From Octopus vulgaris (Eukaryota), in NCBI GenBank assembly GCA_951406725.2, contig CATOCA020000001.1:2170001-2234000 (forward strand): a DNA stretch of 64,000 nucleotides, in the 5' to 3' direction. Position numbers and translations under genes: made by a program. The notes beneath the pieces were generated by a model, which did no database searches, was not told where the DNA came from, and worked only from the letters and a program-made list of their open reading frames with translations. This document shows, in pieces, positions 13,442 to 39,793 of the stretch; position 1 is the stretch's first letter; each line of letters begins with the position of its first letter.

Positions 13442-14427
<986 letters not shown>

Positions 14428-17400
14428 TTTATTTTGTTTTTTATTTTTATCTAGTTTCAGCTCACGAGCTGTGGCCATGCTGGGGCACCGCCATTCGGTG
14501 TTGCTACGTGATTTTACTTCACGAATGCTTTTTAGCAGTTGACATTTGGTGCATGAGAGAGTTTGATACAGCTGACCTCATCTGCACCTCCTGCCGTGAA
14601 GTTGGTTCATCTGGGAACCTGACAAGAAGAGATCCAGTTTTATTTTAAAGACATCTGCATCAACCCCATGCAGGTCTCTCAGGTTCTTCAGGAGGATATT
14701 GAAGAGCCGTGGGCCTCGGAAGCCCAGGCTATCACAGTACCTTGTCCTACATCTTGATGGCAAATTTGGTGTCCTTGGCATTATGCAATGTCACCCAGTT
14801 CTGGCATTTGTGTAACTCTCGATGCCAAAGTTTGGGACAAGTCCTTCCAGGATCTTCCAGATGTATATTATGGCATATCTTTCTCGCCTACGCTCTAAGG
14901 AATAGAGTCTTAATCTCTTGAGTCTTTCCCAGTAGCTTATATGCTGCACAGAGGCTATCTTCTTTGTGTAGCTTCGTTGGATCGCCTCAAGTTCTGTGAT
15001 TAACTTGACACTGGATGGTAACCATAGCTGAGAGCAATAATCAAAGTGGCTTAGGACAAGTGTCCTCCAGAGGATCATCATGGTTTCCTGGTCTCTTGTT
15101 CTAAAGGTTCTAAGAATCCATCCGGTCAGCCGCCTACATTTCATTGCCAATTTAGCAACATGCACAGGAAAGGTTGCATCATCACTCATGTAAATACCCA
15201 GGTCTCGCACTGATTGTGCCTCTGGGATTGCAATCCCTCCAGGTCCAGTGTATTTATTGGGTATTGCATTTAGTTTTGCATGCTGATAGCATAAAGCTTG
15301 AAACTTTTCAGTATTGAACTGCATGCTATTCTTTTCAGCCCACTTGTATATTTTGTCCAGCTCACATTGCAGGTGTTTAGTGTCTTCAGGGTTCTGTATT
15401 GCCTGTGAAACTTTTGTATCATCTGCATAACTTGTGATCGTGGCTCTCTGCGTGGCTGAGGGCATGTCTGAGAGGGCCATTATGAACAGTAGTGGTCCCA
15501 AAATAGTGCCTTGTGGAACACCGCTCACTATTTGCGTATATACATGGAAGTGGCTACTACCACCTGACTTCTATCCTTCAGAAAGTCATGAAGCCATTCT
15601 CCCAATATTCTAACTATGCCAAGATCACGCAATTTGTGACATATCATTCCATGATCGACTTTATCAAAGGCCTTTGCAAAGTCGAGATATATGACTTCCA
15701 TATTTGAGTAGTCGTTTCAGCACCCAGTCATAGTGTTGTAGGAGCTGAGTTAAGCAGCTTCTTCCTGGTCGGAAACCATGTTGGGTGTCAGGCAGCAAGT
15801 CATTTTCTTCAAGGAAGGTGATTAGTTTCCTTCTGACTATTCGTTCCATGACCTTGCTGATGTGTGAGGTCAGAGAGATAGGTCTGTAGTTCTTGGCCTC
15901 CGCTCTGCTACCTCCTTTATGAATAGGGCATATTTTACCTTCCTTCAGTTTTCTTGGAAGTTTGCCAGCTGCAAGGAAGCTCTGAAAGAGGAACTGCAGT
16001 GGTCTTGCTAGGACTCTCTTACATACTTTTAGAAGGATTGCTGGGAATCCATCGGGGCCAGTAGCTGAGTTTGTTTTCATTTCATCTATAGCCTTTATTA
16101 CATCGTCTTCCTTTATATTGATGTAATCAATCATCGTTGCCTCTGATTTTATATCTGCAGTGGTAAAGAAGTCAGTTGGATTGCTGACTTGAAAATGCCC
16201 TAGGGGTGGAGTGAAAATACTCTTGAATTGCTCATTTAGTATTTCACTTATCCTCATTGGATTTCCTGTGAGTGTGCATCCTTTTCAAGGAGTGGCCCTA
16301 TCCTACAGTGCACCGTAGCTGTTTCTTTGGCATACCTGTAGAAAGCTCTGGGGTTAGATTTTATGTTGTCTATAGCCCAGGCATCTTTGTCTGCTCTTTC
16401 TTTTTCATGGGAGAGTTGCAGACATTTTTCAATTTCCAACAGTTTTATTTTCAGGCGGGACTTTTCACTGCTTTCAATTTGTTTGTTTAGGCGATTTGAA
16501 ACTTTTGTACGCCGTCTTTTTAGAATATTCCTCTCTCTGGGGATTTTGTTCTTGTGTACAGTGGCCTTTCTCTCTGGGACACATTTGTAGCACATGGCTT
16601 GCATTACAGACATGAATTGTTGAAGTTTCATGTCGATGACTGGCGAGGAAAGATATTCAGGTCAGTTTTGTTTGAGGATCCCTTTCTCAATTTTTTTCCA
16701 GTTTGCCTTATGGAAGTTCAAGCTGAAAAGATTCTGAGAGTTTCTTGTAGGCTGCATGTCCATGCTTTCCTTTGGTCCGTACATGGTCAGCTCTACCATG
16801 TTGTGGTCCGAGAGTAGTGTCGGTGTCACTTTCACATTATGGATGAGATCCATGTCATTTGTGAAGCAGAGATCCAGTGTGTTACCTGCCCTGGTTGGTT
16901 GGAGTATTACCTGCTCCATGTACAGGGTGTTGATGAGGTTCAGGAGGGACCTCACCTGTCCTCGTTCACATCTTGTCATTCCTGGGAGAGAAAGGCCCTC
17001 GGGCCATCTGACATTGGGCAGATTGAAGTCTTCCATAAGAAGTACACTTATGTGTTGTTCTAATGTGACTAGAACTTCTATTTTTAAAAGTCAGTCTTCA
17101 AACTTGCCTACATGGCTTGGGGCATCTGGAGGGCGATATGTAGCAAATATAACAACACCAAGTTGCATTATATGTACAATTAGTGTGTCACACACCGAAT
17201 TTGAGTATGACAAAAGGACCTGGGGTGTGAGGTCCTCACGGATGTACATAGCAACTCCCCCATGACTCCTTTCTTTTCTGTCGGTCCGTAGAAAAACATA
17301 CTGTGGTATGTGTATTTCCGCATCTGCTATGTCCGGTTTCAGGTGCGTTTCCGTAAGTGCTATGCATAAGGCTTGATTGCATGCAACAAAGTCACTCAAG

Positions 17401-17490
17401 AACGGGATTTTTGTCCTGTTACTGAGTGTTAGCAGTCCTCTGATGTTCAGTAGGAGCATCGAGGTGATGTGTATACTGTTGCCGGTGGTA
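14428..17490 (-). mobile_element. CR1-clade LINE family B, ORF2 (APE + RT), disrupted
   Basis: [86 protein letters not shown]. The 3' end reads GGCGGTGCCCCAGCATGGCCACAGCTC...TGAAAC on the minus strand. Confidence 0.95.
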
Positions 17491-17491
17491 T

Positions 17492-17546
<55 letters not shown>

Positions 17547-17571
17547 CATACACATAAATATATATATATAC

Positions 17572-17629
<58 letters not shown>

Positions 17630-17822
17630 ATATATATACATATATATATATACATACATATATATATACATATATATATACATACATATATATATACATA
17701 CATATATACATATATATATATACATATATATATATACATATTATATATATACATGCATATATATATACATACTTATATATATATATACATACACACATAT
17801 ATATATATACACATACACACAC

Positions 17823-17855
<33 letters not shown>

Positions 17856-18092
17856 TACATATATATATACATACACACACATATATATATACACACATAC
17901 ACACATATATATATACATACATACATACATATATATACACACACATACATATATATATATATACATACACACGCATATATATATATATACATACACACAC
18001 ACACACACATATATATATATTTACATACATATACATATATATACACACATATACATATATACACATACACACATACACATATATATATATAC

Positions 18093-18176
<84 letters not shown>

Positions 18177-19057
18177 GTGTATGTGTGTATGTGTATATAT
18201 GTATATGTGTGTATATATATGTATATGTATGTAAATATATATATATGTGTGTGTGTGTGTATGTATATATATATATGCGTGTGTATGTATATATATATAT
18301 ATATGTGTGTATATATATATATGTATGTATGTATGTATATATATATATATGTGTGTATGTGTGTATATATATATACATACATATACATACATATATATAT
18401 ATACATACATATATATATATAAATAGATATATATATACATATATATATACATACATATATATATACATACATATATACATACATATATATATACATACAT
18501 ATATATATATATACATACTTATATATATACATGCATATATATATATACATACTTATATATATATATATATACATACACACATATATATATATATACACAT
18601 ACACACACACATATATATACACATATATATATATATATACATACATACATATATATATACATACACACACATATATATATACACACATACACACACATAT
18701 ATATATACATACATACATACATATATATATATACACACACATATATATATATATACATACACACGCGCATATATATATATACATACATATATATATATAT
18801 ACACACACACATATACATATATATACATACACACATACATATATATATATATATACATACATACATACATATATGCATACATACATATATATACAAACAT
18901 ACATACATATATATATACAAACATACATACATATATACATACATACATATATATATATATACATACAAATACATATATATATATATACATACATATACAT
19001 ACATATACATACATATATATATATATACATACTTATATATATACAAACATACATACA
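17490..19057. repeat. Compound TA/CA microsatellite field; mirror ~34298-35591
   Basis: Seen directly; contains internal direct and inverted sub-duplications. Confidence 0.95.
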
Positions 19058-19262
19058 TGGATCTCTTCCTGTCAGGTGTCCCAGATGAACCAACTTCACG
19101 GCAGGAGGTACAGATGAGGGCAGCTGCATCGAACTCTCTCATGCACCAAATGGCAGTTGCTAAAAAGCTTTCGTGAAGTAATACCAAGTAGCAACACCAA
19201 ATGGCGGTGCCCCAGCATAGCCACAGCTCATAAGCTGAAACTAGAATCAATCAATCAATCAA
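19058..19262 (+). mobile_element. Short 3' fragment of LINE family B with an (AATC)n tail (mirror ~34092-34298)
   Basis: TGGATCTCTTCCTGTCAGGTGTCCCAGATGAACC...GCTGAAACTAGAATCAATCAATCAATC. Confidence 0.9.
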
Positions 19263-19420
19263 ACATATATACATATATACATACATACATATATACATAT
19301 ATACATATATACATACATACATATATACATATATACATATATACATACATATATACATACATATATACATACATACATATATACATACATACATATATAC
19401 ATACATACATATATACATAC

Positions 19421-19456
<36 letters not shown>

Positions 19457-19463
<7 letters not shown>

Positions 19464-20699
19464 GATCATGGAATGATATGTCACAAACTGCGTGATCTCA
19501 ACATAGTTGGAAAACTGGGAGAATGGCTTCATGACTTTCTGAAAGATAGAAGTCAGGTGGTAGTAGCCAATGGTGGTAGGGCCACTTCCATTAACACGCA
19601 AATAGTGAGCGGTGTTCCGCAGGGCACTGTTCTGGGACCACTACTGTTCATAATGGCCCTCTCAGACATGCCCTCAGCCACGCAGAGAGCCACGATCACA
19701 AGTTATGCAGATGATACAAAAGTTTCACAGGCAATACAGAACCCTGAGGACACTAAACACCTGCAGTGTGAGCTGGACAAAATATACAAGTGGGCTGAAA
19801 AGAATAGCATGCAGTTCAATGCTGAAAAGTTTCAAGCTTTATACTATCAGCATGCAAAACTAAATGCAATACCCAATGAATACACTGGACCCGGAGGAAT
19901 AGCAATCCCAGAGGCACAATCAGTGCGTGTCCTAGGTATTTACATGAGTGATGACGCGACCTTTCGTGTACATGTTGCTAAATTGGCAATGAAATGTAGA
20001 CGACTGGCCGGATGGATCCTCAGAACCTTTAGAACAAGAGAACAAGAAACCATGATGGTCCTCTGGAGGACACTTGTCCCAAGCCACTTTGACTACTGCT
20101 CTCAGTTATGGTCACCATCCAGTGTCAAGTTGATCACAGAGCTCGAGGCGATCCAACGTAGCTACACGAAGAAGATAGCCTCTATGCAGAATGTAAGCTA
20201 CTGGGAAAGACTCAAGAGATTAAAACTATATTCCCTGGAGCGTAGGCGGGAAAGATATGCCATAATATACATCTGGAAGATCCTGGAGGGACGTGTCCTA
20301 AACTTTGGCATCGAGAGTTACTCAAATGCCAGAACTGGGCGCCACTGCGTGGTGCCTAGGACTCCAAACTTGCCATCAAGATGTAGGACAAGATTCTGCG
20401 ATAGCCTGGGCTTCCGAGGCCCACAGCTCTTCAATATCCTCCCGAAGAACCTGAGAGACCTGCATGGGGTGGATGCAGATGTCTTTAAAATGAAACTGGA
20501 TCTCTGCCTGTCAGGTGTCCCAGATGAACCAACTTCACGGCAGGAGGTGCAGATGAGGGCAGCTGCATCGAACTCTCTCATGCACCAAATGGCAGTTGCT
20601 AAAAAGCTTTCGTGAAGTAAAACCAAGTAGCAACACCAAATGGCAGTGCCCCAGCATGGCCACAGCTCATAAGCTGAAACTAGAATCAATCAATCAATC
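19457..20699 (+). mobile_element. 5'-truncated LINE family B copy (RT C-terminal half) with an (AATC)n tail
   Basis: ORF 19473-20615 (380 aa) has [31 protein letters not shown] and [11 protein letters not shown]; tail AATCAATCAATC. Confidence 0.93.
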
Positions 20700-20776
20700 G
20701 GGCTTGAGTCGGGGTTAACCACAGTAAATAAGGTACTCAATACATAGCAGAGTAAATTAATTTATTTTATAGAAGG

Positions 20777-20827
20777 AGCTTCTACAGGACTAGAACTGTT
20801 TCATTCAAAAGAAATCATCAGGAAGCT
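20777..20827 (-). ncRNA. Type I hammerhead ribozyme, intact CUGAUGA core
   Basis: Minus strand AGCTTC-CTGATGA-T-TTC-TTTT-GAA-T-GAAA-CAG-TTCTAGTC-CTG-TA-GAAGCT: helix I AGCTTC/GAAGCT, weak helix II, helix III CAG/CTG, GUA cleavage triplet. Confidence 0.75.
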
Positions 20828-21246
20828 AGGTGACAAGAATAATTTTGGCATTTATACACTTAGGCAGGTTTAAGGGGTGGTGGTGGGGGACTTTTTGGGG
20901 TAGGCATGGCGCAAACTATCATTCTTAGGGGAGTGGTCAAAGGAATCAGTGATAAAGTAGATAAAAGAATAAATAGAATAATAGAGTTTACATACACATA
21001 CCCACATGTATATATATGTGTATATGCCTGTATACCTCTGTGTGGATGTATGTATGTATATGGGTGCGCGTACGGAAGTATGTGTATGTGTATGTAGATG
21101 TGTGTGTATGTATATGTATGTGTATGTATGTATATATATGTATATATATATATATATATATACATGCGTGTATATATCTGTGTGTGTATATATGTGTATA
21201 TATGTATGGGTATATATTTGTGTGCGTATGTATGTGTGTATATATA

Positions 21247-21301
<55 letters not shown>

Positions 21302-21418
21302 ATATGTATATGTGTGTATATGCCTGTATACCTCTGTGTGGATGTATGTATGTATATGGGTGTGCGTACGGATGTATATGTATGTGTATGTAGATGTGTG
21401 TGTATGTATATGTATGTA

Positions 21419-21449
<31 letters not shown>

Positions 21450-21772
21450 ATATATGTATATATACATGCGTGTATATATGTGTGTGTGTATATATGTGTA
21501 TATATGTATGGGTATATATGTGTATATGTATGTATGTATGTGTATGAGTGTATAAGTATGGATTTGTTGGGTTTCTTTTTTTATATATGTAGATAGATGT
21601 GAGTGCGTGTATGTGCGTAGATATGCGTATGTGTATTGGTATTTGCATGTGTATATATATATGTGTATTTATATGTATAGATATATGGATGTATGTGTAT
21701 GTAGGTATGTATATGACTGGTGTAGGTATATATGTGTATGTATATGTAGGTATATACGTGCGTGTATGTGTA

Positions 21773-21813
<41 letters not shown>

Positions 21814-22533
21814 GTATATATATGTATATGTATATACATGTGTATATATATATACTTGTGTATAGATGTGGACTAGTCTTCTGTGTGTGTGCAGATGTAT
21901 GTATGTGTATGCGTGTAGATATGAATCTGTAGGTACGTGTACGTATGCGTATATACGTGCATGTATGTATATGTATGAGTGTAGGTAGATATATGTAGGT
22001 ATGCTTTTATGTACACGTGTGTGTGTGCATGTGTGCTAATATGTACTTAAAGGCGTATGGATGTGTATATATGCGTATGTATGTTTATATGCACAAATGT
22101 CTGTATATAGGCATATGAGTCTATATATGTGGGCAGATGTTCTTGTGTGTTTATGTGTACTGAAGTACATCTATATATGTGGTTTTGTGTGTACATAGCT
22201 ATGAGTACGTTTATGTGAAATTCGGTACACTTATGTATGTATGAATATAACACGTGCGTGTGTGTATGTGTATGAGTGAAATTCGGTACACTTATGTATG
22301 TATGAATATAACACGTGCGTCTGCGTATGTGTATGAGTGTGCGTGTGAGTGTGTGTGCGTGTGTAAGTGTTTGTGTTCGAATCAGTGGGTAGAAAGATAG
22401 AAAGGAAGGTAGAGGGGCAATAAATGGTTTTTTAAGCCAGCTAGCCAAGCTCCTTTGGGAGAAACCTACCTCTGTGTCGGCTTCGTTGGTCGAGGTCAAA
22501 TAAACACAATATATATATATATGTGTATGTATA

Positions 22534-22581
<48 letters not shown>

Positions 22582-22592
22582 TGTGTATGAAT

Positions 22593-22644
<52 letters not shown>

Positions 22645-22991
22645 GGATATGTGAGCGTGTGTGTATGGGGGTGTATATCCTCTATTATATTTATTTATTT
22701 ATTTTACACATATATATGTGTGTACATATTTGTGTGTATGTATGAGTATGGGTATGGGTGAGTACGTAGATGTATGTAAATGGGTGCATATGTACATGTG
22801 TATACGGATGTTTGTGGGTTTGTGTATGTAAACTCTATTATTCTATTTATTCTTTTATCTACTTTATCACTGATTCCTTTGACCACTCCCCTAAGAATGA
22901 TGGTTTGCGCCATGCCTACCCCAAAAAGTCCCCCACCACCACCCCTTAAACCTGCCTAAGTGTATAAATGCCAAAATTATTCTTGTCACCT

Positions 22992-23042
22992 AGCTTCCTG
23001 GTGATTTCTTTTGAATGAAACAGTTCTAGTCCTGTAGAAGCT
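22992..23042 (+). ncRNA. Hammerhead copy with mutated core (CUGGUGA); mirror at 30277-30327 (minus)
   Basis: AGCTTC CTGGTGA TTTCTTTTGAAT GAAA CAG...CTG TA GAAGCT. The same A>G core change is present in both arms. Confidence 0.65.
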
Positions 23043-23053
23043 CCTTCTATAAA

Positions 23054-23113
<60 letters not shown>

Positions 23114-23182
23114 TACAAAATTAGAAAATATATATTTCGCAGCGTACGTGCATAATAACTTCTTTATGTTTGTTATGTTTAT

Positions 23183-23229
<47 letters not shown>

Positions 23230-23581
23230 TTATAAAATGAGATGAGGGTTGAAAATTCAACCCACCATGGGATAACATATATCCAATATACTGCTAGATA
23301 GGTACCCAACAAGACTAATACATAGATGTTAAAAATTACCAAGCAATTAGTTCATCTATTGTATTATTTGGGCAAAGGTAATAATATTACCGTAAATTAA
23401 TGCTACAAAATTAGAAAATGGAGAAACATACTTAAATCAATAAAACATCAACCATAAGATGATACCCAATCAATACTTTATTACACCATTACATATCAGT
23501 AAAGGCATTATATAACATATATAGTAAATATAAATAGACAAGGAACTGGAAATATAAAATATAAAATATAATATGTAATTG

Positions 23582-23709
23582 TAACACATCTGACAGCTGT
23601 TTCGGCAGTGAGGGCAGTTATACCTCATTTAACCTATAAGCCATTAAGGCAGGTATAAATGAGGCATTAACAAGGATGCCCCACGGCCTCTTCAGAGAAT
23701 TTAATGTTA
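23582..23709 (-). ncRNA. Type I hammerhead ribozyme in the PLE 3' terminal repeat (sense to the ORF), extended helix II
   Basis: Minus strand TCT-CTGAAGA-GGC...GCC-GAAA-CAGCTG-TC-AGA with palindromic helix III CAGCTG and a GUC cleavage triplet. Distal helix I pairing TAACAT/GTGTTA. Confidence 0.88.
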
Positions 23710-25867
23710 TAATTGTGAAAAAATTATGAAAAAATTATTTTTCCATATACATATAAATATAAAAATATAAACATGTAATATATAAAAAACTTGTGCATAA
23801 ACTCCATCCTGCTACACATATACAATACTTATTGATACACGAGTAAATGCAAGGTAAACAAAACAGAATAAAACAAAATATATAAAAAACAAAATATAAA
23901 ATATATATCAGTGTATATATTAATATTAATAAGCACAGTTATTTTACATATTTGGCTAATAGTTCTAAAAATTAACACATAGGGAGATATATGCTCACTA
24001 CTATTTAAATTAATATTCTATCTATACCTGAAAAATAATAATAATAATAGAAAACCATAGTTCAGTTCATAAAATTATAAATCTATAAAAGTCAATAATA
24101 ATTACTATTAATATTAATAATAATAATAATAATAATAGATACAGTTAAGTTTGTAACAAGTCCATCCTTTCAAAATTGATATAACTATGAGTTAAGTTAG
24201 TCTGTCGCTTGGAATTGATTATTCTCGATTAATTCGATTGGCTTGTAGTTTGAAATTTGAATCACGAAAGAAATTTTACGGTTGGTTAGTCAAGAAACGC
24301 ATATACGCACACGCACATCCATAGATCAAACGCACATACATACATAATTACATGTACACACACACATACACTTGTATACAAACATATCTACAATCAACCC
24401 CTAGCACATAGATAAATAAATAAATAAGGGAGCAACTAAACTGCCATCTAGTCTTTCAAAATTATAACTATGCTACAAAAAACAAGAGAGATCCGCTCAC
24501 TTAATTTCATAAAAAATATTTGTTTCAAAGATGTATATATTTATATATCAATATATCACTATATCGGATGCTATTTCATTAGGTGCGCTGTGTATTTAGC
24601 ACCGGTTTTAATATTGTCAACATTGCAGTTATTAGATTAACGGTAAATTTTTATGATTAAGTTAAAAACTAAAAATTAATTATTATATTATAACTATATA
24701 TCTCTTTTAACTTAATAAATTCTATGCCATTATAAACTAGATTAGGCATTAAATAATAACAACTAAGGGAAACACTAATGCAATCGTATATAAGAAAATC
24801 ACAGAAATAAAATAAATTAATAGAATGTGAATTCTTAAGTTAACATGCGATAAAATAAGAATAAGTAATTACGATTACACACATAATGTAAGTACAAACC
24901 AGTATATATGTATTCACATATTATTAAAAATAAATGATTGATATGCATGTATAAATCTACACTTAAATAAGTAAATAAATAAATAAGTAAATAATTGGAT
25001 TACTTGATATGTATGTATAAATCTACCCTTAGATAAGTAAATAAATAAATAAATACATAAATAAATAATTAGAAGACCAAATGCATAGATAGATACTATA
25101 GAGAACCAATTCGGATAAATGCATAGGTACAGGCAAAACTAATATATAGTAATGCTAATATGCATAAATCCATATATATATAAAAGAGAAGATATATATT
25201 GAAGAAAGTACCAATATAAACTTGGTATACAGGCTAATATTATGAAGATTCATATCTGTAAATAGTAAGTAAAAAATGGATAGATGGATAATTAAATGTA
25301 CAGATCCAGAAGACTATAAATATAGACTAAATATATAAGGCTACTAATATTTATAAAACTAAATGTTTATAAGTGAAAAAGTTTATTAGTAAATAGCATA
25401 AGTTACAAATTAAGGTGAATATAGAAAGACCAAATATACAATATAAACCTACCAAATAAACATATACAAAAAACCTAGATTCTCAACCTAAACAAAACAA
25501 ACTCCCAAAAGGTTTCTCATATATTATACAATAGTATTACTTTATCCATAGTTAGGTAACTAACCAAGATATTCATATACACCATGCAATATTGGAAAAC
25601 TTCAAGAATCACATATTACAAGGCAAATACCAAACTGAATAAGTTATTTCTTGTCATAGTGTATTTCCCTTAAAAACAAGACAAAAAACCCACATACAAA
25701 AAACAAAAAACAATTAATACTGGACACATCCAATATTATACATGTGTAGCTACAAAATATATAAAAATTATAAATTTATAAATTGCATGTTTAAGAATTA
25801 TAGAAGACCACTAGTATAGTTAGTTACAGAAGGGAGTTAAAAATATTAATAGTAGAGATGCTAAGTT

Positions 25868-28560
25868 CTATTTGAATCTAGAAAAGGTGAACGGTAGTCT
25901 ATGAATGCAAAAAAAGTTTTTTTCATTTATGTTGTTAATAATATGCCTGCCCGCTTTAATAATGAAAAAAATTTCATTAATACATAGAGAGCATTTTTTA
26001 TTTTTTCCATTATACACAGGTGCCGAAGTTAATATTTTCCAATTTAATCTAAAATCTAAGTTCTTACTTTTTAGTTCCCAAATGTATGCACTTAACCCCG
26101 TGGAGTACATCCTATTTATATTTCTAAAAGTATATATGTGATAATTAAGTCTCTGTTTCATACTATTCATGGTTGCTCCGATGTACACCCTACTACTAAA
26201 TTGTGTAACCACAGTGCATTGGTAAACTACCTCCTTCCTGAGGCATTGATTATCAAACACACATTTATTTCTACTTCTGCAATTGCAGTTATTGACAGAT
26301 TGGGGTAATCTAAGATTGGTCCCCAATCCTGTACCACCATTCACATTAGAAGGATTACAATTGTTAAGAGGGTTGTTCCCGTTGGTTCCAGAAGAGTTAC
26401 TCTTCCTATTATTAAAGGGGGGCAAATTTCTATTATCTAAATTCAACTTTCTATCTTTATAGAAGTAATCCAGTTTCCTGTTATTAAAAGAGGAGATAAT
26501 GGTGGCTATATTATGAGTAATGCTATATCCTACTCTAACAGTACCATTATTAATTAAATGACTAAATTTATTCATATCCTTACCAAAATGCCTAAATATT
26601 ACATTATGCAAAGCTCTAACTATGTCCGTTTTGATCTGCATTGCATATGGGATAATCAGCCAGAGTGTATCCTTATCCGAATTAGGATTGCCTATCGAGT
26701 TATTGTTTTTTGTAAAAATCCTATTCCTAGACCAACCCATATGTTTACTATTCTTACCAATGTCATTGTTATATCTATCCATATCAATATTCCTAAGATT
26801 GTTATCATATCTACCATAAGTTTTTATATGTATATTATTAATATTGCTAGTATTACCCGTTTGCTCAGATCTATTTAAGCTACCGTTCACCGTTCTGAGG
26901 TTAACATCACCACTATAACTACCATGGGCGTTATCATATGTTCTATTTTTTCTATTCTTATATTTAATATTGTTTATCCTAAATCTATTAGCGTTGTTCC
27001 TAATAGTTCCACCTCCATTTGGAGGGTTTCCCTTAGGTATAAACCATATTTTGCTTTTGTATCCTGCTTTTAGCAATGCTACATTGTATCTATCACAATG
27101 CTTGTTAAAAATTTCCTCGTTAGAGGATAAACAAGAAATCCTCTGACTAATGCTACGTACTAGTGCATTTTTAATTTGAGGGGGGTGATTGCTTAAACGG
27201 TTTATATATATTAAATTAGAGTTGGGTTTTATATAAGGTTCATGTAAACCATTTGTAATGTTACAATTAGCATCTAAATAATTAGCAGAATAGTTTTCAC
27301 TTTCAAAGATAATAGATAGGCCGAAACTTTTAAAAAATTTATTAATTCTTTTTTTCAGAAGATCTAATCTCCTATTAGTTGTATTCTTAACACAAAATAA
27401 TGCGTCATCCCTGTATAATCCACCTTTTAATTCAGGGAATTCCCTACTAAAGTTATCTAATAGATACATCCCTACTAGATCCGTCACCTCCGCCGAGTCC
27501 GGCGATCCCATAGTGATGTCGAACAAGTTGGGTGTGTCCTTCCTAGCCCAAAGTTTATTATCAAACTCTATTAAAGTTTTCCTGGCAGTTAATATAACCT
27601 TAATCTCCCCCCTACTTAATTTAGTGTGTTTTCTAGCAAAAATTAACGCCTTATTTAAGATAATAGGGTTAATGGAAGTGTAATAATTCTGTATATCAAA
27701 TTGGATGAATTTACTTCTATTATAACTGTTGTTGTTGTTGTCACAGACCTTAATGGTTGAAAACCAATCCAAAGCACCCTGAGTATTCTTCCAAAGGTTT
27801 AGTTTAATTTTACTGCGAATAGTGGGTAGATATTTGTCTAGAATGAGTTTGCTTAGTCTTCCTAAGTCAGACTTGGTGGGGCAAATTAATCTGACCTGTG
27901 TGTTTCCAAGAAAGTTCTCTTTATGGTCCTTTAGTGTGATTCTCGGTCTGGATGGGGTGTACGGTTCCGTTTTTTCTTCTAGGTGGTAGTCCAATATTAT
28001 TTCCCTGATCTCAAGGTTCAATTTTCTAAGTGTACCAAGAGGTACAACTTTGTATTTCTTAGTTATTTCTTTATGTAGTAGATCGTGATATTTAGGAATG
28101 TCAATATTATAGATGTTGTTGGTTTTGTCAGAGTGTGTTAGAATGCCTTTCTTACTCTTGAGAGTTCTTATTAAATCTTTTAATTCCCTTTGGTGCGGGT
28201 TATATCTCAAAGGATGGTTTCTAAATTTTATGTTTTTTATAGTCTCCCAAAGTTCTTGTTCAAAATTATCTAGATGTGTATTTGGTGGAGGAGACTTCCT
28301 AGATTTAAATGTAGTGCCTGTTAATTTTATTATTTCTTCATAGGTACTTCCAGTTCTATTCCGGATCGTTTCCCCATTATGTTGTTGGTTTGTTTTTTGT
28401 TATAGTTCTCATGGTGGAAAATCCTCCATCTAATCCTGTGGATAAATTCATTAATTCTATAAATTAGCTCTTTAGTGTAATGGTCTTTGGTAGGGATAGG
28501 TACATCTTTCATTGATGAATTGATTAATATTTTCTCCATTTTACTAGCAGTAATGATCAA
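25868..28560 (-). CDS. PLE polyprotein: N-terminal region + reverse transcriptase + thumb + Asn-rich linker + GIY-YIG endonuclease; one frameshift near 28345
   Basis: N-terminus SMKDVPIP..Y...LIYRINEFIHRIRW (28330-28560) continues in a shifted frame as FKSRKSPPP...LDNFEQEL into ORF 25868-28210. Motifs: SDKTNN, RLICPTKS, FIQFDIQNYYTSI, DITMGSPDSAEVTDLVG, GLYRDDAL, YLD, SNHPP. Nuclease: CNCRSRNKC..CL..VVY....YIGAT..KQRL..H..F...LS.YIWELK...WKIL...CSLCINE...CIH. Confidence 0.93.
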
Positions 28561-29612
28561 GGAGGAATAAATGTACTATACTAGGGTGTATTCACATACA
28601 CTATTAATACTTAGATCAATAAATGGATGTTTCAATTACACCAGTATGAGCAATTCAGGTTCCTCAAAAGATAAATTAAGGTTATAAAATGAGATGAGGG
28701 TTGAAAATTCAACCCACCATGGCACCTAATGAAATAGCATCCGATATAGTGATATATTGATATATAAATATATACATCTTTGAAACAAATATTTTTTATG
28801 AAATTAAGTGAGCGGATCTCTCTTGTTTTTTGTAGCATAGTTATAATTTTGAAAGACTAGATGGCAGTTTAGTTGCTCCCTTATTTATTTATTTATCTAT
28901 GTGCTAGGGGTTGATTGTAGATATGTTTGTATACAAGTGTATGTGTGTGTGTACATGTAATTATGTATGTATGTGCGTTTGATCTATGGATGTGCGTGTG
29001 CGTATATGCGTTTCTTGACTAACCAACCGTAAAATTTCTTTCGTGATTCAAATTTCAAACTACAAGCCAATCGAATTAATCGAGAATAATCAATTCCAAG
29101 CGACAGACTAACTTAACTCATAGTTATATCAATTTTGAAAGGATGGACTTGTTACAAACTTAACTGTATCTATTATTATTATTTTTATTATTATTATTAT
29201 TATTATTAATATTAATAGTAATTATTATTGACTTTTATAGATTTATAATTTTATGAACTGAACTATGGTTTTCTATTATTATTATTATTTTTCAGGTATA
29301 GATAGAATATTAATTTAAATAGTAGTGAGCATATATCTCCCTATGTGTTAATTTTTAGAACTATTAGCCAAATATGTAAAATAACTGTGCTTATTAATAT
29401 TAATATATACACTGATATATATTTTATATTTTGTTTTTTATATATTTTGTTTTATTTTGTTTTGTTTACCTTGCATTTACTCGTGTATCAATGAGTATTG
29501 TATATGTGTAGCAGAATGGAGTTTATGCATAAGTTTTTATATTTTACATTTTTATATTTTTATATTTATATGTATATGGAAAAATAATTTTTTCATAATT
29601 TTTTCACAATTA

Positions 29613-29740
29613 TAACATTAAATTCTCTGAAGAGGCCGTGGGGCATCCTTGTTAATGCCTCATTTATACCTGCCTTAATGGCTTATAGGTTAAATGAGGT
29701 ATAACTGCCCTTACTGCCGAAACAGCTGTCAGATATGTTA
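29613..29740 (+). ncRNA. Type I hammerhead ribozyme in the inverted PLE terminal repeat
   Basis: CTGAAGA 29627-29633, GAAA 29719-29722, CAGCTG, predicted cleavage after C29730. Helix I TCT/AGA plus TAACAT/ATGTTA. Helix II GGC-CGTGGGGCA...CCTCATTTA...TAAATGAGG...TGCCCTTAC-TGCC. Confidence 0.88.
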
Positions 29741-30092
29741 CAATTACATATTATATTTTATATTTTATATTTCCAGTTCCTTGTCTATTTATATTTACTA
29801 TATATGTTATATAATGCCTTTACTGATATGTAATGGTGTAATAAAGTATTGATTGGGTATCATCTTATGGTTGATGTTTTATTGATTTAAGTATGTTTCT
29901 CCATATTCTAATTTTGTAGCATTAATTTACGGTAATATTATTACCTTTGCCCAAATAATACAATAGATGAACTAATTGCTTGGTAATTTTTAACATCTAT
30001 GTATTAGTCTTGTTGGGTACCTATCTAGCAGTATATTGGATATATGTTATCCCATGGTGGGTTGAATTTTCAACCCTCATCTCATTTTATAA

Positions 30093-30151
<59 letters not shown>

Positions 30152-30217
30152 AACATAATAAACATAAAGAAGTTATTATGCACGTACGCTGCGAAATATA
30201 TATTTTCTAATTTTGTA

Positions 30218-30260
<43 letters not shown>

Positions 30261-30265
<5 letters not shown>

Positions 30266-30672
30266 TTTATAGAAGGAGCTTCTACAGGACTAGAACTGTT
30301 TCATTCAAAAGAAATCACCAGGAAGCTAGGTGACAAGAATAATTTTGGCATTTATACACTTAGGCAGGTTTAAGGGGTGGTGGTGGGGGACTTTTTGGGG
30401 TAGGCATGGCGCAAACTATCATTCTTAGGGGAGTGGTCAAAGGAATCAGTGATAAAGTAGATAAAAGAATAAATAGAATAATAGAGTTTACATACACATA
30501 CCCACAAACATCCGTATACACATGTACATATGCACCCATTTACATACATCTACGTACTCACCCATACCCATACTCATACATACACACAAATATGTACACA
30601 CATATATATGTGTAAAATAAATAAATAAATATAATAGAGGATATACACCCCCATACACACACGCTCACATAT

Positions 30673-30758
<86 letters not shown>

Positions 30759-30769
30759 TCATACACACT

Positions 30770-30809
<40 letters not shown>

Positions 30810-31517
30810 TATATATACATACACATATATATATTGTGTTTATTTGACCTCGACCAACGAAGCCGACACAGAGGTAGGTTTCTCCCAAGGGAGCTTGGCT
30901 AGCTGGCTTAAAAAACCATTTATTGCCCCTCTACCTTCCTTTCTATCTTTCTACCCACTGATACGAACACAAACACTTACACACGCACACACACTCACAC
31001 GCACACTCATACACATACGCAGACGCACGTGTTATATTCATACATACATAAGTGTACCGAATTTCACTCATACACATACAACGCACGTGTACATACATAA
31101 GTGTACCGAATTTCACATAAACGTACATAGCTATGTACACACAAAACCACATATATAGATGTACTTCAGTACACATAAACACACAAGAACATCTGCCCAC
31201 ATATATAGACTCATATGCCTATATACAGACATTTGTGCATATAAACATACATACGCATATATACACATCCATACGCCTTTAAGTACATATTAGCACACAT
31301 GCACACATACACGTGTACATAAAAGCATACCTACATATATCTACCTACACTCATACATATACATACATGCACGTATATACGCATACGTACACGTACCTAC
31401 AGATTCATATCTACACGCATACACATACATACATCTGCACACACACAGAAGACTAGTCCACATATATACACAAGTATATATATATACACATGTATATACA
31501 TATACATATATATACAT

Positions 31518-31548
<31 letters not shown>

Positions 31549-31870
31549 CATATATACACATACACGCACGTATATACCTACATATACATACACATATATA
31601 CCTACACCAGTCATATACATACCTACATACACATACATCCATATATCTATACATATACATACACATATATATACACATGCACATACCAATACACATACGC
31701 ATATCTACGCACATACACGCACTCACATCTATCTACATATATAAAAAAAAGAAACCCAACAAATCCATACTTATACACTCATACACATACATACATACAT
31801 ATACACATATATACCCATACATATATACACATATATACACACACACATATATACACGCATGTATATATAC

Positions 31871-31913
<43 letters not shown>

Positions 31914-31966
31914 CATATACATACACACACATCTACATACACATACATATACACACATATACATAT

Positions 31967-32006
<40 letters not shown>

Positions 32007-32095
32007 AAATATATATATACACACATACATACGCACACAAATATATACCCATACATATATACACATATATACACACACAGATATATACACGCATG

Positions 32096-32127
<32 letters not shown>

Positions 32128-32580
32128 TATACATACATACACATACATATACATACACACACATCTACATACACATACACATACTTCCGTACGCGCACCC
32201 ATATACATACATACATCCACACAGAGGTATACAGGCATATACACACATATATATACATGTGGGTATGTGTATGTAAACTCTATTATTCTATTTATTCTTT
32301 TATCTACTTTATCACTGATTCCTTTGACCACTCCCCTAAGAATGATAGTTTGCGCCATGCCTACCCCAAAAAGTCCCCCACCACCACCCCTTAAGCCTGC
32401 CTAAGTGTATAAATGCCAAAACTATTCTTGTCACCTAGCTTCCTGATGATTTCTTTTGAATGAAACAGTTCTAGTCCTGTAGAAGCTCCTTCTATAAGAT
32501 AAATTAATTTACTCTGCTATGTATTGAGTACCTTATTTACTGTGGTTAACCCCGACTCAACCCGGGACCTACACTACATA
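30261..32580. mobile_element. Mirror copy of the hammerhead-bearing foldback element
   Basis: 30261-30506 is inverted relative to ~32258-32503, with extension to ...CCCCGACTCAACCCGGGACCTACACTAC then (TA)n. Confidence 0.8.
32437..32487 (+). ncRNA. Type I hammerhead ribozyme, intact CUGAUGA core (mirror of 20777-20827)
   Basis: AGCTTC CTGATGA TTTCTTTTGAAT GAAA CAG TTCTAGTC CTG TA GAAGCT. Confidence 0.75.
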
Positions 32581-32606
32581 TATATATATATATTTATATA
32601 TATATA

Positions 32607-33847
32607 TGATTGATTGATTGATTGATTCTAGTTTCAGCTTATGAGCTGTGGCCATGCTGGGGCACTGCCATTTGGTGTTGCTACTTGGTTTTACTTCACG
32701 AAAGCTTTTTAGCAACTGCCATTTGGTGCATGACAGAGTTCGATGCAGCTGCCCTCATCTGCACCTCCTGCCGTGAAGTTGGTTCATCTGGGAGACCTGA
32801 CAAGAAGAGATCCAGTTTCATTTTAAAGACATCTGCATCCACCCCATGCAGGTCTCTCAGGTTCTTCGGGAGGATATTGAAGAGCTGTGGGCCTCGGAAA
32901 CCCAGGCTATCGCAGAATCTTGTCCTACATCTTGATGGCAAGTTTGGAGTCCTAGGCACCACGCAGTGGCGCCCAGTTCTGGCATTTGCGTAACTCTCGA
33001 TGCCAAAGTTTAGGACACGTCCCTCCAGGATCTTCCAGATGTATATTATGGCATATCTTTCCCGCCTACGCTCCAGGGAATATAGTTTTAATCTCTTGAG
33101 TCTTTCCCAGTAGCTTACATTCTGCATAGAGGCTATCTTCTTCGTGTAGCTACGTTGGATCGCCTCGAGCTCTGTGATCAACTTGACACTGGATGGTGAC
33201 CATAACTGAGAGCAGTAGTCAAAGTGGCTTAGGACAAGTGTCCTCCAGAGGACCATCATGGTTTCTTGTTCTCTTGTTCTAAAGGTTCTGAGGATCCATC
33301 CGGCCAGTCGTCTACATTTCATTGCCAATTTAGCAACATGTACACGAAAGGTCGCGTCATCACTCATGTAAATACCTAGGTCACGCACTGATTGTGCCTC
33401 TGGGATTGCTATTCCTCCGGGTCCAGTGTATTCATTGGGTATTGCATTTAGTTTTGCATGCTGATAGTATAAAGCTTGAAACTTTTCAGCATTGAACTGC
33501 ATGCTATTCTTTTCAGCCCACTTGTATATTTTGTCCAGCTCACATTGCAGGTGTTTAGTGTCCTCAGGGTTCTGTATTGCCTGTGAAACTTTTGTATCAT
33601 CTGCATGACTTGTGATCGTGGCTCTCTGCGTGGCTGAGGGCATGTCTGAGAGGGCCATTATGAACAGTAGTGGTCCCAGAACAGTGCCCTGCGGAACACC
33701 GCTCACTATTTGCGTGTTAATGGAAGTGGCCCTACCACCATTGGCTACTACCACCTGACTTCTATCTTTCAGAAAGTCATGAAGCCATTCTCCCAGTTTT
33801 CCAACTATGTTGAGATCACGCAGTTTGTGACATATCATTCCATGATC

Positions 33848-33853
<6 letters not shown>
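32607..33853 (-). mobile_element. Mirror copy of the 5'-truncated LINE family B
   Basis: ORF 32696-33838 differs from 19473-20615 by about 7 residues in 380 and has the same truncation point. Confidence 0.93.
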
Positions 33854-33937
<84 letters not shown>

Positions 33938-34945
33938 ATATGTATGTATGTATATATGTATGTATGTATATATGTATGTATGTATATATGTATGTATATA
34001 TATATATGTATGTATATATGTATATATGTATATATGTATGTATGTATATATGTATATATGTATATATGTATGTATGTATATATGTATATATGTTTGATTG
34101 ATTGATTGATTCTAGTTTCAGCTTATGAGCTGTGGCCATGCTGGGGCACCGCCATTTGGTGTTGCTACTTGGTTTTACTTCACGAAAGCTTTTTAGCAAC
34201 TGCCATTTGGTGCATGAGAGAGTTCGATGCAGCTGCCCTCATCTGTACCTCCTGCCGTGAAGTTGGTTCATCTGGGACACCTGACAGGAAGAGATCCATG
34301 TATGTATGTTTGTATATATATAAGTATGTATATATATATGTATGTATATGTATGTATATGTATGTATATATATATATATGTATATGTATGTATATATATA
34401 TATATATGTATGTATGTATATATGTATGTATGTTTGTATATATATATGTATGTATGTTTGTATATATATGTATGTATGCATATATGTATGTATGTATGTA
34501 TATATATATATGTGTATGTGTGTATGTATATATATGTATATGTGTGTGTGTATATATATATATATATATGTATGTATATATATATATGCGTGTGTATGTA
34601 TATATATATATATATGTGTGTATATATATGTATGTATGTATATATATATGTGTGTGTATGTGTGTATATATATATGTGTGTGTATGTATATATATATGTA
34701 TGTATGTATATATATATATATATGTGTATATATATGTGTGTGTGTATGTGTATATATATATATATATGTGTGTATATATATATATATATAAGTATGTATA
34801 TATATATGCATGTATATATATAGTATATATATATATGTATGTATATATATATGTATGTATATATGTATGTATATATATATATGTATGTATATATATATAT
34901 GTATATATATATCTATTTATATATATGTATGTATATATATATATG

Positions 34946-34990
<45 letters not shown>

Positions 34991-35368
34991 GTATATATAT
35001 ATGTGTATGTGTGTATGTGTATATATGTATATGTGTGTATATATATGTATATGTATGTAAATATATATATGTGTGTGTGTGTGTGTATGTATATATATAT
35101 ATGCGTGTGTTTGTATATATATATATGTGTGTGTGTATATATATGTATGTATGTATGTATATATATATATATGTGTGTATGTGTCTATATATATATGTGT
35201 GTGTATGTATATATATATGTATGTATATATATATGTGTGTATATATATATGTGTGTGTATGTGTATATATATATGTGTGTATGTATATATATATATATAT
35301 ATATAAGTATGTACATATATATGCATGTATATATATAATATGTATATATATATATATATATATGTATG

Positions 35369-35399
<31 letters not shown>

Positions 35400-35441
35400 A
35401 TATATATATATGTATATATATATGTTGTATATATATATATG

Positions 35442-35590
<149 letters not shown>

Positions 35591-35591
35591 A

Positions 35592-38500
35592 TACCACCGG
35601 CAACAGTATACACATCACCTCGATGCTCCTACTGAACATCAGAGGACTGCTAACACTCAGTAACAGGACAAAAATCCCGTTCTTGAGTGACTTTGTTGCA
35701 TGCAATCAAGCCTTATGCATAGCACTTACGGAAACGCACCTGAAACCGGACATAGCAGATGCGGAAATACACATACCACAGTATGTTTTTCTACGGACCG
35801 ACAGAAAAGAAAGGAGTCATGGGGGAGTTGCTATGTACATCCGTGAGGACCTCACACCCCAGGTCCTTTTGTCATACTCAAATTCGGTGTGTGACACACT
35901 AATTGTACATATAATGCAACTTGGTGTTGTTATATTTGCTACATATCGCCCTCCAGATGCCCCAAGCCATGTAGGCAAGTTTGAAGACTGACTTTTAAAA
36001 ATAGAAGTTCTAGTCACATTAGAACAACACATAAATGTACTTCTTATGGAAGACTTCAATCTACCCAATGTCAGATGGCCCGAGGGCCTTTCTCTCCCAG
36101 GAATGACTCGATGCGATCGAGGACAGGTGAGGTCCCTCCTGAACCTCATCAACACTCTGTACATGGAGCAAGTAATACTCCAACCAACCAGGGCAGGTAA
36201 CATACTGGATCTCTGCTTCACAAATAATATGGATCTCATCCATAATGTGAAAGTGACACCGACACTACTCTCGGACCACAACATGGTAGAGCTGACCATG
36301 TACGGACCAAAGGAAAGCATGGACATGCAGCCTACAAGAAACTCTCAGAATCTTTTCAGCTTGAACTTCCATAAGGCAAACTGGAAAAAAATTGAGAAAG
36401 GGATCCTCAAACAAAACTGACCTGAATATCTTTCCTTGCCAGTCATCGACATGAAACTTCAACAATTCATGTCTGTAATGCAAGCCATGTGCTACAAATG
36501 TGTCCCAGAGAGAAAGGCCACTGTACACAAGAACAAAATCCCCAGAGAGAGGAATATTCTAAAAAGACGGCGTACAAAAGTTTCAAATCGCCTAAACAAA
36601 CAAATTGAAAGCAGTGAAAAGTCCCGCCTGAAAATAAAACTATTGGAAATCGAAAAATGTCTGCAACTCTCCCATGAAAAAGAAAGAGCAGACAAAGATG
36701 CCTGGGCTATAGACAACATAAAATCTAACCCCAGAGCTTTCTACAGGTATGCCAAAGAAACAGCTACGGTGCACTGTAGGATAGGGCCACTCCTTGAAAA
36801 GGATGGCACACTTACAGGAAATCCAATGAGGATAAGTGAAATACTAAATGAGCAATTCAAGAGTATTTTCACTCCACCCCTAGGGCATTTTCAAGTCAGC
36901 AATCCAACTGACTTCTTTACCACTGCAGATATAAAATCAGAGGCAACGATGATTGATTACATCAATATAAAGGAAGACGATGTAATAAAGGCTATAGATG
37001 AAATGAAAACAAACTCAGCTACTGGCCCCGATGGATTCCCAGCAATCCTTCTAAAAGTATGTAAGAGAGTCCTAGCAAGACCACTGCAGTTCCTCTTTCA
37101 GAGCTTCCTTGCAGCTGGCAAACTTCCAAGAAAACTGAAGGAAGGTAAAATATGCCCTATTCATAAAGGAGGTAGCAGAGCGGAGGCCAAGAACTACAGA
37201 CCTATCTCTCTGACCTCACACATCAGCAAGGTCATGGAACGAATAGTCAGAAAGAAACTAATCACCTTCCTTGAAGAAAATGACTTGCTGCCTGACACCC
37301 AACATGGTTTCCGACCAGGAAGAAGCTGCTTAACTCAGCTCCTACAACACTATGACTGGGTGCTGAAACGACTACTCAAATATGGAAGTCATATATCTCG
37401 ACTTTGCAAAGGCCTTTGATAAAGTCGATCATGGAATGATATGTCACAAATTGCGTGATCTTGGCATAGTTAGAATATTGGGAGAATGGCTTCATGACTT
37501 TCTGAAGGATAGAAGTCAGGTGGTAGTAGCCACTTCCATGTATATACGCAAATAGTGAGCGGTGTTCCACAAGGCACTATTTTGGGACCACTACTGTTCA
37601 TAATGGCCCTCTCAGACATGCCCTCAGCCACGCAGAGAGCCACGATCACAAGTTATGCAGATGATACAAAAGTTTCACAGGCAATACAGAACCCTGAAGA
37701 CACTAAACACCTGCAATGTGAGCTGGACAAAATATACAAGTGGGCTGAAAAGAATAGCATGCAGTTCAATGCTGAAAAGTTTCAAGCTTTATGCTATCAG
37801 CATGCAAAACTAAATGCAATACCCAATAAATACACTGGACCTGGAGGGATTGCAATCCCAGAGGCACAATCAGTGCGAGACCTGGGTATTTACATGAGTG
37901 ATGATGCAACCTTTCCTGTGCATGTTGCTAAATTGGCAATGAAATGTAGGCAGCTGACCGGATGGATTCTTAGAACCTTTAGAACAAGAGACCAGGAAAC
38001 CATGATGGTCCTCTGTAGGATACTTGTCCTAAGCCACTTTGATTATTGCTCTCAGCTATGGTTACCATCCAGTGTCAAGTTAATCACAGAACCTGAGGCT
38101 ATCCAACGAAGCTACACAAAGAAGATAGCCTCTGTGCAGCATATGAGCTACTGGGAAAGACTCAAGAGATTAAGACTCTATTCCTTAGAGCGTAGGCGAG
38201 AAAGATATGCCATAATATACATCTGGGAGATCCTAGAAGGACTTGTCCCAAACTTTGGCATCGAGAGTTACACAAATGCCAGAACTGGGTGCCATTGCAT
38301 AATGCCAAGGACACCAAATTTGCCATCAAGATGTAGGACAAGGTACTGTGATAGCCTGGGCTTCCGAGGCCCACAGCTCTTCAATATCCTCCTGAAGAAC
38401 CTGAGAGACCTGCATGGGGTTGATGCAGATGTCTTTAAAATAAAACTGGATCTCTTCTTGTCAGGTGTCCCAGATGAACCAACTTCACGGCAGGAGGTGC

Positions 38501-38657
38501 AGATGAGGGCAGCTGTATCAAACTCTCTCATGCACCAAATGTCAACTGCTAAAAAGCATTCGTGAAGTAAAATCAAGTAGCAACACCGAATGGCGGTGCC
38601 CCAGCATGGCCACAGCTCGTGAGCTGAAACTAGATAAAAATAAAAAACAAAATAAAA
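35592..38657 (+). mobile_element. CR1-clade LINE family B, mirror copy
   Basis: ORFs ending at 35991, 36046-36420, 36436-37419 and 37555-38565. Same stops (GKFED*, ILKQN*) and the same frameshifting deletion (LLKYGSHISR) as the left copy. Confidence 0.95.
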
Positions 38658-38680
38658 TATATATATATATATATATATAT

Positions 38681-39368: not shown

Positions 39369-39377
<9 letters not shown>
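38681..39377. mobile_element. ~690-bp insertion present only in the right arm, with terminal direct repeats and a 5' inverted segment
   Basis: Absent at the matching left-arm position (~14410-14428). TTTAGCTGCTATTTCTAATGAG...AAGCCCTTTTATATA occurs at ~38750-38816 and ~39311-39377. 38681-38750 is inverted relative to 38842-38908. Flanked by TA runs. Confidence 0.8.
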
Positions 39378-39431
<54 letters not shown>

Positions 39432-39538
39432 ATATGTATATATATATATATATGTATGTATATATGTGTATATATATATATATATGTAAATATGTATGTA
39501 TATAAGTGTATATATATATGTGTATATATATATATATG

Positions 39539-39597
<59 letters not shown>

Positions 39598-39762
39598 GTA
39601 TATATATATGTATGTATATGTATATATATATGTATGTATATGTATATATATATGTATGTATATGTATATATATATGTATGTATATATATATATATATATG
39701 TATGTATATATATATATGTATGTATATATATATATATGTATGTATGTATATATATATGTATG

Positions 39763-39793
<31 letters not shown>

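Follow-up and report, generated by a model that had tools for sequence, protein, structure and literature searches.

The question raised by this locus is how a retrotransposon comes to be flanked by pieces of its own 3' end, one in tandem and one inverted. The locus lies in a 64,000-nucleotide (nt) window of the Octopus vulgaris genome (C31:2170001-2234000; positions are those of the window unless a contig is named). The element is a full-length copy of a Hydra-type Penelope-like element (PLE) with an inverted arm and a short pseudo-long terminal repeat (pLTR), which is a 5'-truncated partial tandem copy upstream of the main copy. The initial annotation of the window had assigned the start of the inversion to a hairpin-containing 44-nt end unit, and was silent on a second 3' end of the family, on the pairing of the two ends, on a hammerhead motif and on a 15-kb palindrome around the element. 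We found that two-armed insertions of this family almost always carry one of each of two fixed 3' ends, termed A and B. The architecture as such is known for PLEs; the pairing rule at the level of the family and the long tails are the new part. The window copy, an atypical and secondarily rearranged member, is of little interest in itself, and the family-wide A+B pattern is the useful result.

The genome searched comprises 2.8 Gb in 227 contigs. Exact end patterns were searched genome-wide, with reversed patterns as controls. The 3' ends of the family abut (TA)n at one of two fixed sites located 176 nt apart; 326 exact A ends and 241 exact B ends were found, and the controls gave 0. On the minus strand of the window copy, end A (…TTTTATAACCT) lies at 23227 and adjoins the (TA)n target at 23186-23226. 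The end-B site (…CTAATTTTGTAG; 23403-23414), corresponding to the alternative 3' end at 23403, was read through in this copy, and the 176-nt tail between the two family ends occupies 23227-23402.

Full-length copies were sampled with a query from the 5' region, keeping the best 40 of 637 candidates, and 39 copies other than that of the window were retrieved. The near-identical matches L002, L004 and L005 were rejected as independent transpositions; they are segmental duplicates of the window insertion. Among 34 two-armed loci, 28 had one A and one B end (two of these being small insertions nested beside another copy), one had two A ends (the window copy), and five gave no end call, since they contain N gaps, run past the retrieved DNA or have an arm that stops at neither A nor B. 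For six of the A+B cases the main end had served to predict the far end before the latter was retrieved. For C1-C5, where both end lists are complete (99 A and 80 B), divergent pairs up to 16 kb apart comprised 15 A+B pairs (13 new), no A+A pair and one B+B pair, against a random expectation of 49% A+B. The ends of the lone B+B pair lie 14.6 kb apart, and its left B already forms a pair with an A at a distance of 123 nt. A search aimed at exceptions gave no A+A match within 60 nt; its 14 apparent B+B matches all consisted of one B and a tail-bearing arm, 13 of them reaching A. Three of three short A+B candidates were confirmed. Altogether, 57 of 58 resolved two-armed insertions were A+B, the window copy (A+A) being the sole exception. 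Beside the hairpin described below, a very short inverted B arm of 8 to about 49 nt was located at 12 loci or more, and an inverted A arm at none, among the 100 of 207 matches listed; a few of these tiny-arm loci contain short filler sequence. Two independent complexes choosing A or B at random would be expected to give same-end pairs in about half of the cases, and the C1-C5 counts led us to reject this possibility.

A canonical PLE insertion consists of a partial tandem pLTR, an inverted 5' copy and an optional tail of 30-40 nt (PMC8557442, PMC3846280; here and below publications are cited for the portions of their text that were covered). The pLTR is a standard feature (PMC8557442, PMC8969392), and the tail is described as 30-40 nt long and as 'optional' or 'often only at one end' (PMC8557442, PMC11167929, PMC3846280, PMC4209133, PMC8969392, bioRxiv 10.64898/2026.07.22.740005). 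The origin of the tandem and inverted ends and of the tail is called an open question in PMC8557442. The octopus family resembles this structure (PMC8557442, PMC3846280) in having a pLTR, often with an adjacent inverted arm, as expected for endonuclease-bearing PLEs, and a tail at one end. It differs in its tail length, 176 nt compared to the 30-40 nt described, and in its joints, which are mostly not palindromic. Whereas the canonical tail is optional, here it was found on exactly one end in the 57 A+B insertions.

A second Hydra-type family from the same genome (30 loci of 63 matches) has its two ends, and thus a tail, of 72 nt spacing, and all five two-armed insertions with both ends in the fetched DNA were A+B. 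This family (L138-L167, e.g., C13:36410257-36412374) is very young, with a unit of about 3.36 kb and many intact open reading frames (ORFs) of about 710 amino acids (aa); upstream of the ATG, at a distance of about 200 nt, it carries a hammerhead of compact canonical form.

The two arms of an insertion start at unrelated positions and are joined by about 0-8 nt of microhomology. This bears on the possibility that one cDNA folds back to serve as its own template (or that an antisense RNA does so by self-priming), after which the endonuclease trims the tail off one arm. Such a course is close to published proposals of self-priming (PMC3846280) and endonuclease-mediated resolution (PMC8557442), and it also predicts one tail per insertion. 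Arms matching their own main copy and a few near-palindromic joints (L026, 4581 vs. 4570) agree with it, and in one register A agrees with B at 17 of 23 nt, the best match in the unit, which could mark an endonuclease site. However, this likeness was chosen post hoc, fades with other window sizes and was not seen in the second family. Most joints are not palindromic, with arm starts differing by hundreds to thousands of nucleotides. Fold-back copying also requires that one arm be contained in the other. This fails for L015, whose B arm extends beyond the A arm on the upstream side, and for L232-L234, where an A arm of about 17-45 nt has no sequence in common with the B arm; it likewise fails in tiny cases such as C7:65507006, where an 8-nt B arm lies beside a hairpin-side piece of about 47 nt, again with no shared sequence. 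In L232-L234 and the tiny cases neither arm can be a copy of the other, and fold-back copying is therefore excluded for those insertions. The strict A+B rule together with the non-overlapping arms rules out both independent site choice and simple fold-back copying, and we regard fold-back as quite improbable for the family as a whole.

We consider it reasonably probable, from the genomic sequences, that insertion of the family proceeds by paired target-primed reverse transcription, with two fixed start sites on a repeating RNA template. The element encodes a protein with reverse transcriptase (RT) and GIY-YIG motifs and its copies sit in (TA)n; its genomic 3' ends lie at A or B; and two-armed insertions combine one A end with one B end, from arms with unrelated starts, sometimes without shared sequence, and microhomology joints. 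The endonuclease would nick both strands of (TA)n, after which one RT would start at A and a second at B on the opposite strand. The two RTs would probably form one dimer on one RNA, and the two cDNAs would be joined head to head; a single productive priming would give a single-armed copy ending at A or B. The template would be repeating, probably a circle closed at the hammerhead cut, so that the RT would run into the 3' end again and stop at random after re-entering it, in the window copy after 44 nt.

L1 twin priming also uses two primers from the two target strands and gives a head-to-head inversion with a microhomology joint. The second primer of L1 anneals internally at random and leaves arms without overlap, whereas here the second site is fixed and the arms can overlap for kilobases. 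Another parallel is PAc, the Poseidon element of the green anole, for which nicking and extension of both strands were seen in vitro (Frangieh et al., 2024, PMC11167929). The tail of PAc is defined by two start sites within the RNA, and PAc is predicted to act as a dimer (PMC11167929). The likeness to the octopus family includes two starts bounding the tail, a stem-loop near a start, an AT-rich target, extension of both strands and the predicted dimer (PMC11167929). The PAc sites lie 30-40 nt apart inside the ORF (PMC11167929), whereas here they lie 176 nt apart in the untranslated region (UTR), with A located 139 nt upstream of the ATG. One-of-each pairing is not stated in the main-text portion of PMC11167929 that was covered; Fig. 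S2 of that paper, which concerns genomic ends, could be relevant to it. Our literature search found no statement of a strict one-of-each rule, of longer tails or of twin priming in PLEs; Arkhipova (2006), Evgen'ev and Arkhipova (2005) and Pyatkov (2004) may hold part of this.

Several points weigh against paired priming as proposed here. The mechanism is read from genomic DNA, and these data fit one RNA or two RNAs per complex alike, just as they fit either a circle or end-to-end jumping on a linear RNA. For PAc, no difference in start site between the strands was seen (PMC11167929). The inverted arms of S070 and L081 end at neither A nor B, and that of the window copy ends at A where the family rule predicts B, at 29919. 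Five of 39 pLTR or inverted segments were not nearest to their own main copy (ranks 2, 2, 3, 3 and 28, the last of 30 candidates). Finally, the query used for the full-length sample contained the 44-mer, which biases the pLTR frequency upward.

Extended to PLEs in general, the proposal is fixed twin priming by one RT dimer on one circular, hammerhead-closed RNA with two registered starts; we put this forward tentatively, as a possibility that falls short of even chances. If it were true, each subunit would prime from one nicked strand and roll along the template with strand displacement before the ends are joined, the tail would reflect how far apart the two subunits sit (72 or 176 nt here), and a single reaction would account for pLTRs, inversions and tail alike. 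With the A+B rule and the long tails, the mechanism of PLE integration can be tested directly in the in vitro system that already exists. At 72 and 176 nt the tails separate the two start sites easily, unlike the 30-40 nt spacing studied so far. Useful material includes a young family with the naturally intact 947-aa L067, and the second family, whose many intact ORFs suit in vitro work.

The initial annotation had suggested a circular or tandem template. This was supported: an upstream 5'-truncated copy preceded the leader in 37 of the 39 other full-length copies, joined at the same base as 23227. A type I hammerhead ribozyme is predicted at 23570-23725 (minus strand; CUGAAGA core at 23695, a stem II of 84 nt, which is unusual, and CGAAAC-AGCU-GUC), with the predicted cut after 23592. 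The region folds with a z-score of -5.1 and the motif had 118 matches in the fetched copies; an Rfam search that included the region gave no ribozyme match. Twenty-nine of the 37 pLTRs extend past the predicted cut and four reach the ORF, so the template was continuous across that site. Of 39 pLTR or inverted segments, 34 (ties included, among 14-30 candidates) were nearest to their own main copy. A circular template for PLEs was proposed in PMC4209133 and would explain copies of more than unit length. It is less likely, though a real contender, that a tandem parent is read through into a linear transcript that serves uncut as the template, pLTRs being taken over from the upstream copy of that parent. 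Parents of this tandem kind exist (S083_88, S097), and PAc hammerhead mutants still insert in vitro, with no reads ending at the cut site (PMC11167929). On the other hand, such a transcript would presumably have to start far upstream to yield pLTRs as long as 4345 nt or two-armed insertions in which each arm exceeds one unit, and inherited pLTRs could presumably only shrink from generation to generation. Furthermore, a pLTR usually shows little or no difference from its main copy, even where other copies differ by 1-3%.

The 44-nt repeat that drew attention to the locus was found as described: 23227-23270 and 28679-28722 are identical over exactly 44 nt with no extension on either side. The inversion begins at its edge, the inverted segment starting at 28722 with an overlap of 1 nt. 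A third, inverted copy is located at 30052-30095. The stem is also present; the hairpin GGGUUGA-AUUU-UCAACCC (23246-23263, minus strand) lies 19 nt upstream of end A and folds with an extended base (23242-23268) at a z-score of about -2.2 to -2.3. The role given to this unit, that of a signal dedicated to recognition or template switching where the inversion would start, was not upheld. Among the 39 other full-length copies pLTRs range from 0 to 4345 nt, and the 37 that are present measure 42-4345 nt with a median of 839; only one is 50 nt or shorter. Inversion joints occur at scattered positions, with overlaps mostly of 0-8 nt, and the stops of very short copies are spread between -38 and -65 nt, in most cases at microhomologies of TA. 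These scattered lengths, joints and stops place the 44-mer at the short end of the standard pLTR continuum, and it is an ordinary tandem-copy leftover. A signal function finds some agreement in L062, the one other full-length copy with a pLTR of 41-42 nt starting at the hairpin base, in five of about 28 very short copies that start at -38 to -43, and in an extended stem kept by different pairs in the window copy and the main subfamily. The remaining short copies end between -47 and -65, where TA microhomologies lie, however, and site B has no comparable hairpin (z -0.15), so that we hold such a signal to be very improbable. The hairpin may help to position start site A, which lies 19 nt downstream of the core stem. 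A blind search of 26 junctions, mostly of single-armed copies, found no tiny inverted remnants at the 5' side; the copies adjoin (TA)n or host DNA without anything in between. Very small pieces of the element, present two to three times with 80-93-nt spacing, were observed in (TA)n at C25:18159955-18160167 and C4:13315246-13315401.

The unit of the window element is 5452 nt. Read on the minus strand, the 44-nt pLTR (28679-28722), which equals the last 44 nt of an upstream 5'-truncated copy, is followed by a 5' leader (28540-28678), joined to end A of that upstream copy at the same base as in other full-length copies. The ORF (25868-28539) encodes an RT plus a C-terminal GIY-YIG endonuclease, and the 3' UTR (23227-25867) is 2.64 kb, which is long for the Hydra clade. 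On the plus strand, the inverted element arm (28722-30095, equivalent to 24586-23227) passes the B site at 29908-29919 and ends at A. The ORF, its CxCx5C before and CxxC after GIY-YIG, and the (TA)n past the 3' end had all been noted correctly. The ORF has a single frameshift, as had been noted, located in a T run at 28393-28398 and not near 28345. In short-read contigs from other samples the T run was one base longer in four of four runs, and in three of these it sits on contigs otherwise identical over 113-123 nt. The ORF is fully open in one of the 39 other full-length copies, and many copies break at identical homopolymer runs. From the longer run in all four runs and these shared breakpoints, the frameshift is probably a homopolymer error of the assembly and not real. 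Most ORFs of the family break at the same homopolymer runs (L061-L099), and the assembly probably under-calls intact copies.

The natural intact relative L067 encodes 947 aa with two Asn-rich inserts (21-25% Asn). In the window copy these in-frame inserts lie at about 26680-27010 and 26300-26460 (minus strand), the second being about 48 aa shorter than in the main subfamily. Asn-rich ORF inserts have also been described for the Penelope elements of Adineta vaga.

The assignment to the Hydra clade made in the initial annotation agrees with the motifs found. Published Hydra motifs are RWK, DKT, CxCx5C, absence of CCHH, CxxC and CxH beside E and N, (TA)n targeting and a hammerhead (PMC8557442). 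The window-family protein is a single ORF with a PLE-type RT and GIY-YIG and has the RT and endonuclease motifs FD, YRDD (27404-27415) and YIG, as expected for endonuclease-bearing PLEs. It reads RIRWR (RWR at about 28426-28437, with R for the K of RWK), SDKT (28121-28132) and a CNCRSRNKC linker, which is CxCx5C (26261-26287). Its endonuclease has YIGAT…LSAYIW (VYIGAT at 26171-26188) without the His pair, hence no CCHH, followed by CSLCINE, a CxxC by the E (25973-25993), and NEKNFFCIH, a CxH by the N (25901-25918). Insertion into (TA)n, also suggested earlier, was seen across copies. Pfam and PDB sequence searches with this protein gave no RT or GIY-YIG match. A profile of the protein and 23 relatives aligned over 580 columns (96.5%, E 8.7e-10) to a PLE of the same genome that has Pfam RVT_1 and GIY-YIG matches. 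DK[TS] was present in 62 of the 75 homologues found and DKG in none. In a 28-row tree, which holds no Naiad, Nematis, Athena or Poseidon rows, the protein was nested among RWK/DKT relatives and apart from three DKG-type rows (100/100), its nearest named row being Argonauta hians P0014. Membership in the Hydra clade appears to follow from the motifs, the tree being without published references. The family shares with the clade the single RT and C-terminal GIY-YIG ORF, the protein motifs and the (TA)n target (PMC8557442), and it has a predicted hammerhead motif. Published Hydra elements measure 2.1-3.0 kb (PMC8557442), with less than 3 kb being typical and not defining, whereas here the unit is 5.45 kb with a 2.6-kb 3' UTR. 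Further differences are the 947-aa protein with two Asn-rich inserts, the 84-nt stem II of the predicted hammerhead and the 176-nt tail. Hydra-1_Obim of Octopus bimaculoides (PMC8557442) differs by eye in its hammerhead and N-terminal protein sequences, and the octopus family is therefore distinct from it. The suggestion of a young family held for the main subfamily, where ORF divergence has a median of 1.16% and a minimum of 0.00 (378 pairs), and not for the window copy, which differs from those copies by 9-11% (9.1% from its nearest sampled relative). An intact 765-aa DKG-type PLE with a CxxC/CCHH endonuclease, apparently multi-copy, was also observed (L198, C16:20836792-20839089).

What makes the window copy the single A+A case is best considered with its surroundings. 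The inverted segment had been taken to be 1.36 kb long, but the inversion continues past 30095 through (TA)n and about 13.8 kb of host flank with several long interspersed nuclear elements (LINEs). A BLAST self-comparison of the window revealed palindrome arms of about 15 kb at 9426-24586 and 28722-44201, with the window copy at the center. The left arm holds host flank (LINEs and microsatellites) and the last 1.36 kb of the element; the right arm ends in (TA)n at 44166-44201 and has a 679-nt stretch that is missing from the left arm. The arms differ at 107 of 9215 sites in non-microsatellite flank (66 transitions) and at 6 of 1050 sites in the element part. The flank belongs to a multi-copy block, also present at C31:9.55 Mb, C31:2.69 Mb and C28:8.64 Mb, and the arms are mosaic among these paralogues, parts of them being closer to other paralogues than to each other. 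The C28 copy has the same outer junction (44201) with 1.7 kb of collinear sequence beyond it, and this junction is joined by microhomology to the element body at 26704 in an inverted arrangement. The palindrome is thus likely to be real and older, and we are fairly confident that it is not a misjoin.

An assembly artefact, joining haplotypes or paralogues through the inverted repeat while the true arm is ordinary and B-ended, is unlikely but has some points in its favor. The copy is the only A+A among the 58, its contig is small (12 Mb) with many duplicated blocks, and the assembly has N gaps at two related inverted copies. A divergence of about 1% is the size of haplotype differences in many marine invertebrates. 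Against this stand the outer junction shared with C28, the nature of the arm differences (transitions and a 679-nt indel, unlike read errors), and the closer match of part of each arm to other paralogues. No contig among those listed from four runs of other samples bridges the inner joint at 28722/28723, which is neutral either way. 3' transduction of the 13.8-kb flank by the element was rejected; the left flank runs on in a paralogue beyond 9426 to at least 2392, and none of the other copies examined has flank within its inverted arm.

A real palindrome was probably formed after the insertion, likely by later recombination through 1.2 kb of inverted homology. The inverted arm would first have ended at B, and recombination with the left side or a block paralogue would have swapped in A and about 13.8 kb of flank. 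The order of these events is open to doubt, as the arms are mosaic: over the element end the right arm is 0.32% from one paralogue and 0.74% from the left arm, which counts against this account of the window copy.

A 17-nt remnant identical to end B and followed by (TA)n is located in the flank at 23113-23129 (minus strand). It is present in both arms and in the C31:9.55 Mb paralogue, and absent from those at C28 and C31:2.69 Mb; it is probably a tiny separate insertion. Several non-LTR elements (LINEs) with APE and RT, some near full length, were found within the palindrome and next to it, at 10366-13357, 14400-17489 and 19425-20699, with inverted copies, and at 50676-54042. A 94-bp satellite with units 98% identical occupies positions 1-2136 of the window, extends at least 10 kb upstream and also occurs at L116; its unit presumably resembles a segment of an octopus short interspersed nuclear element.

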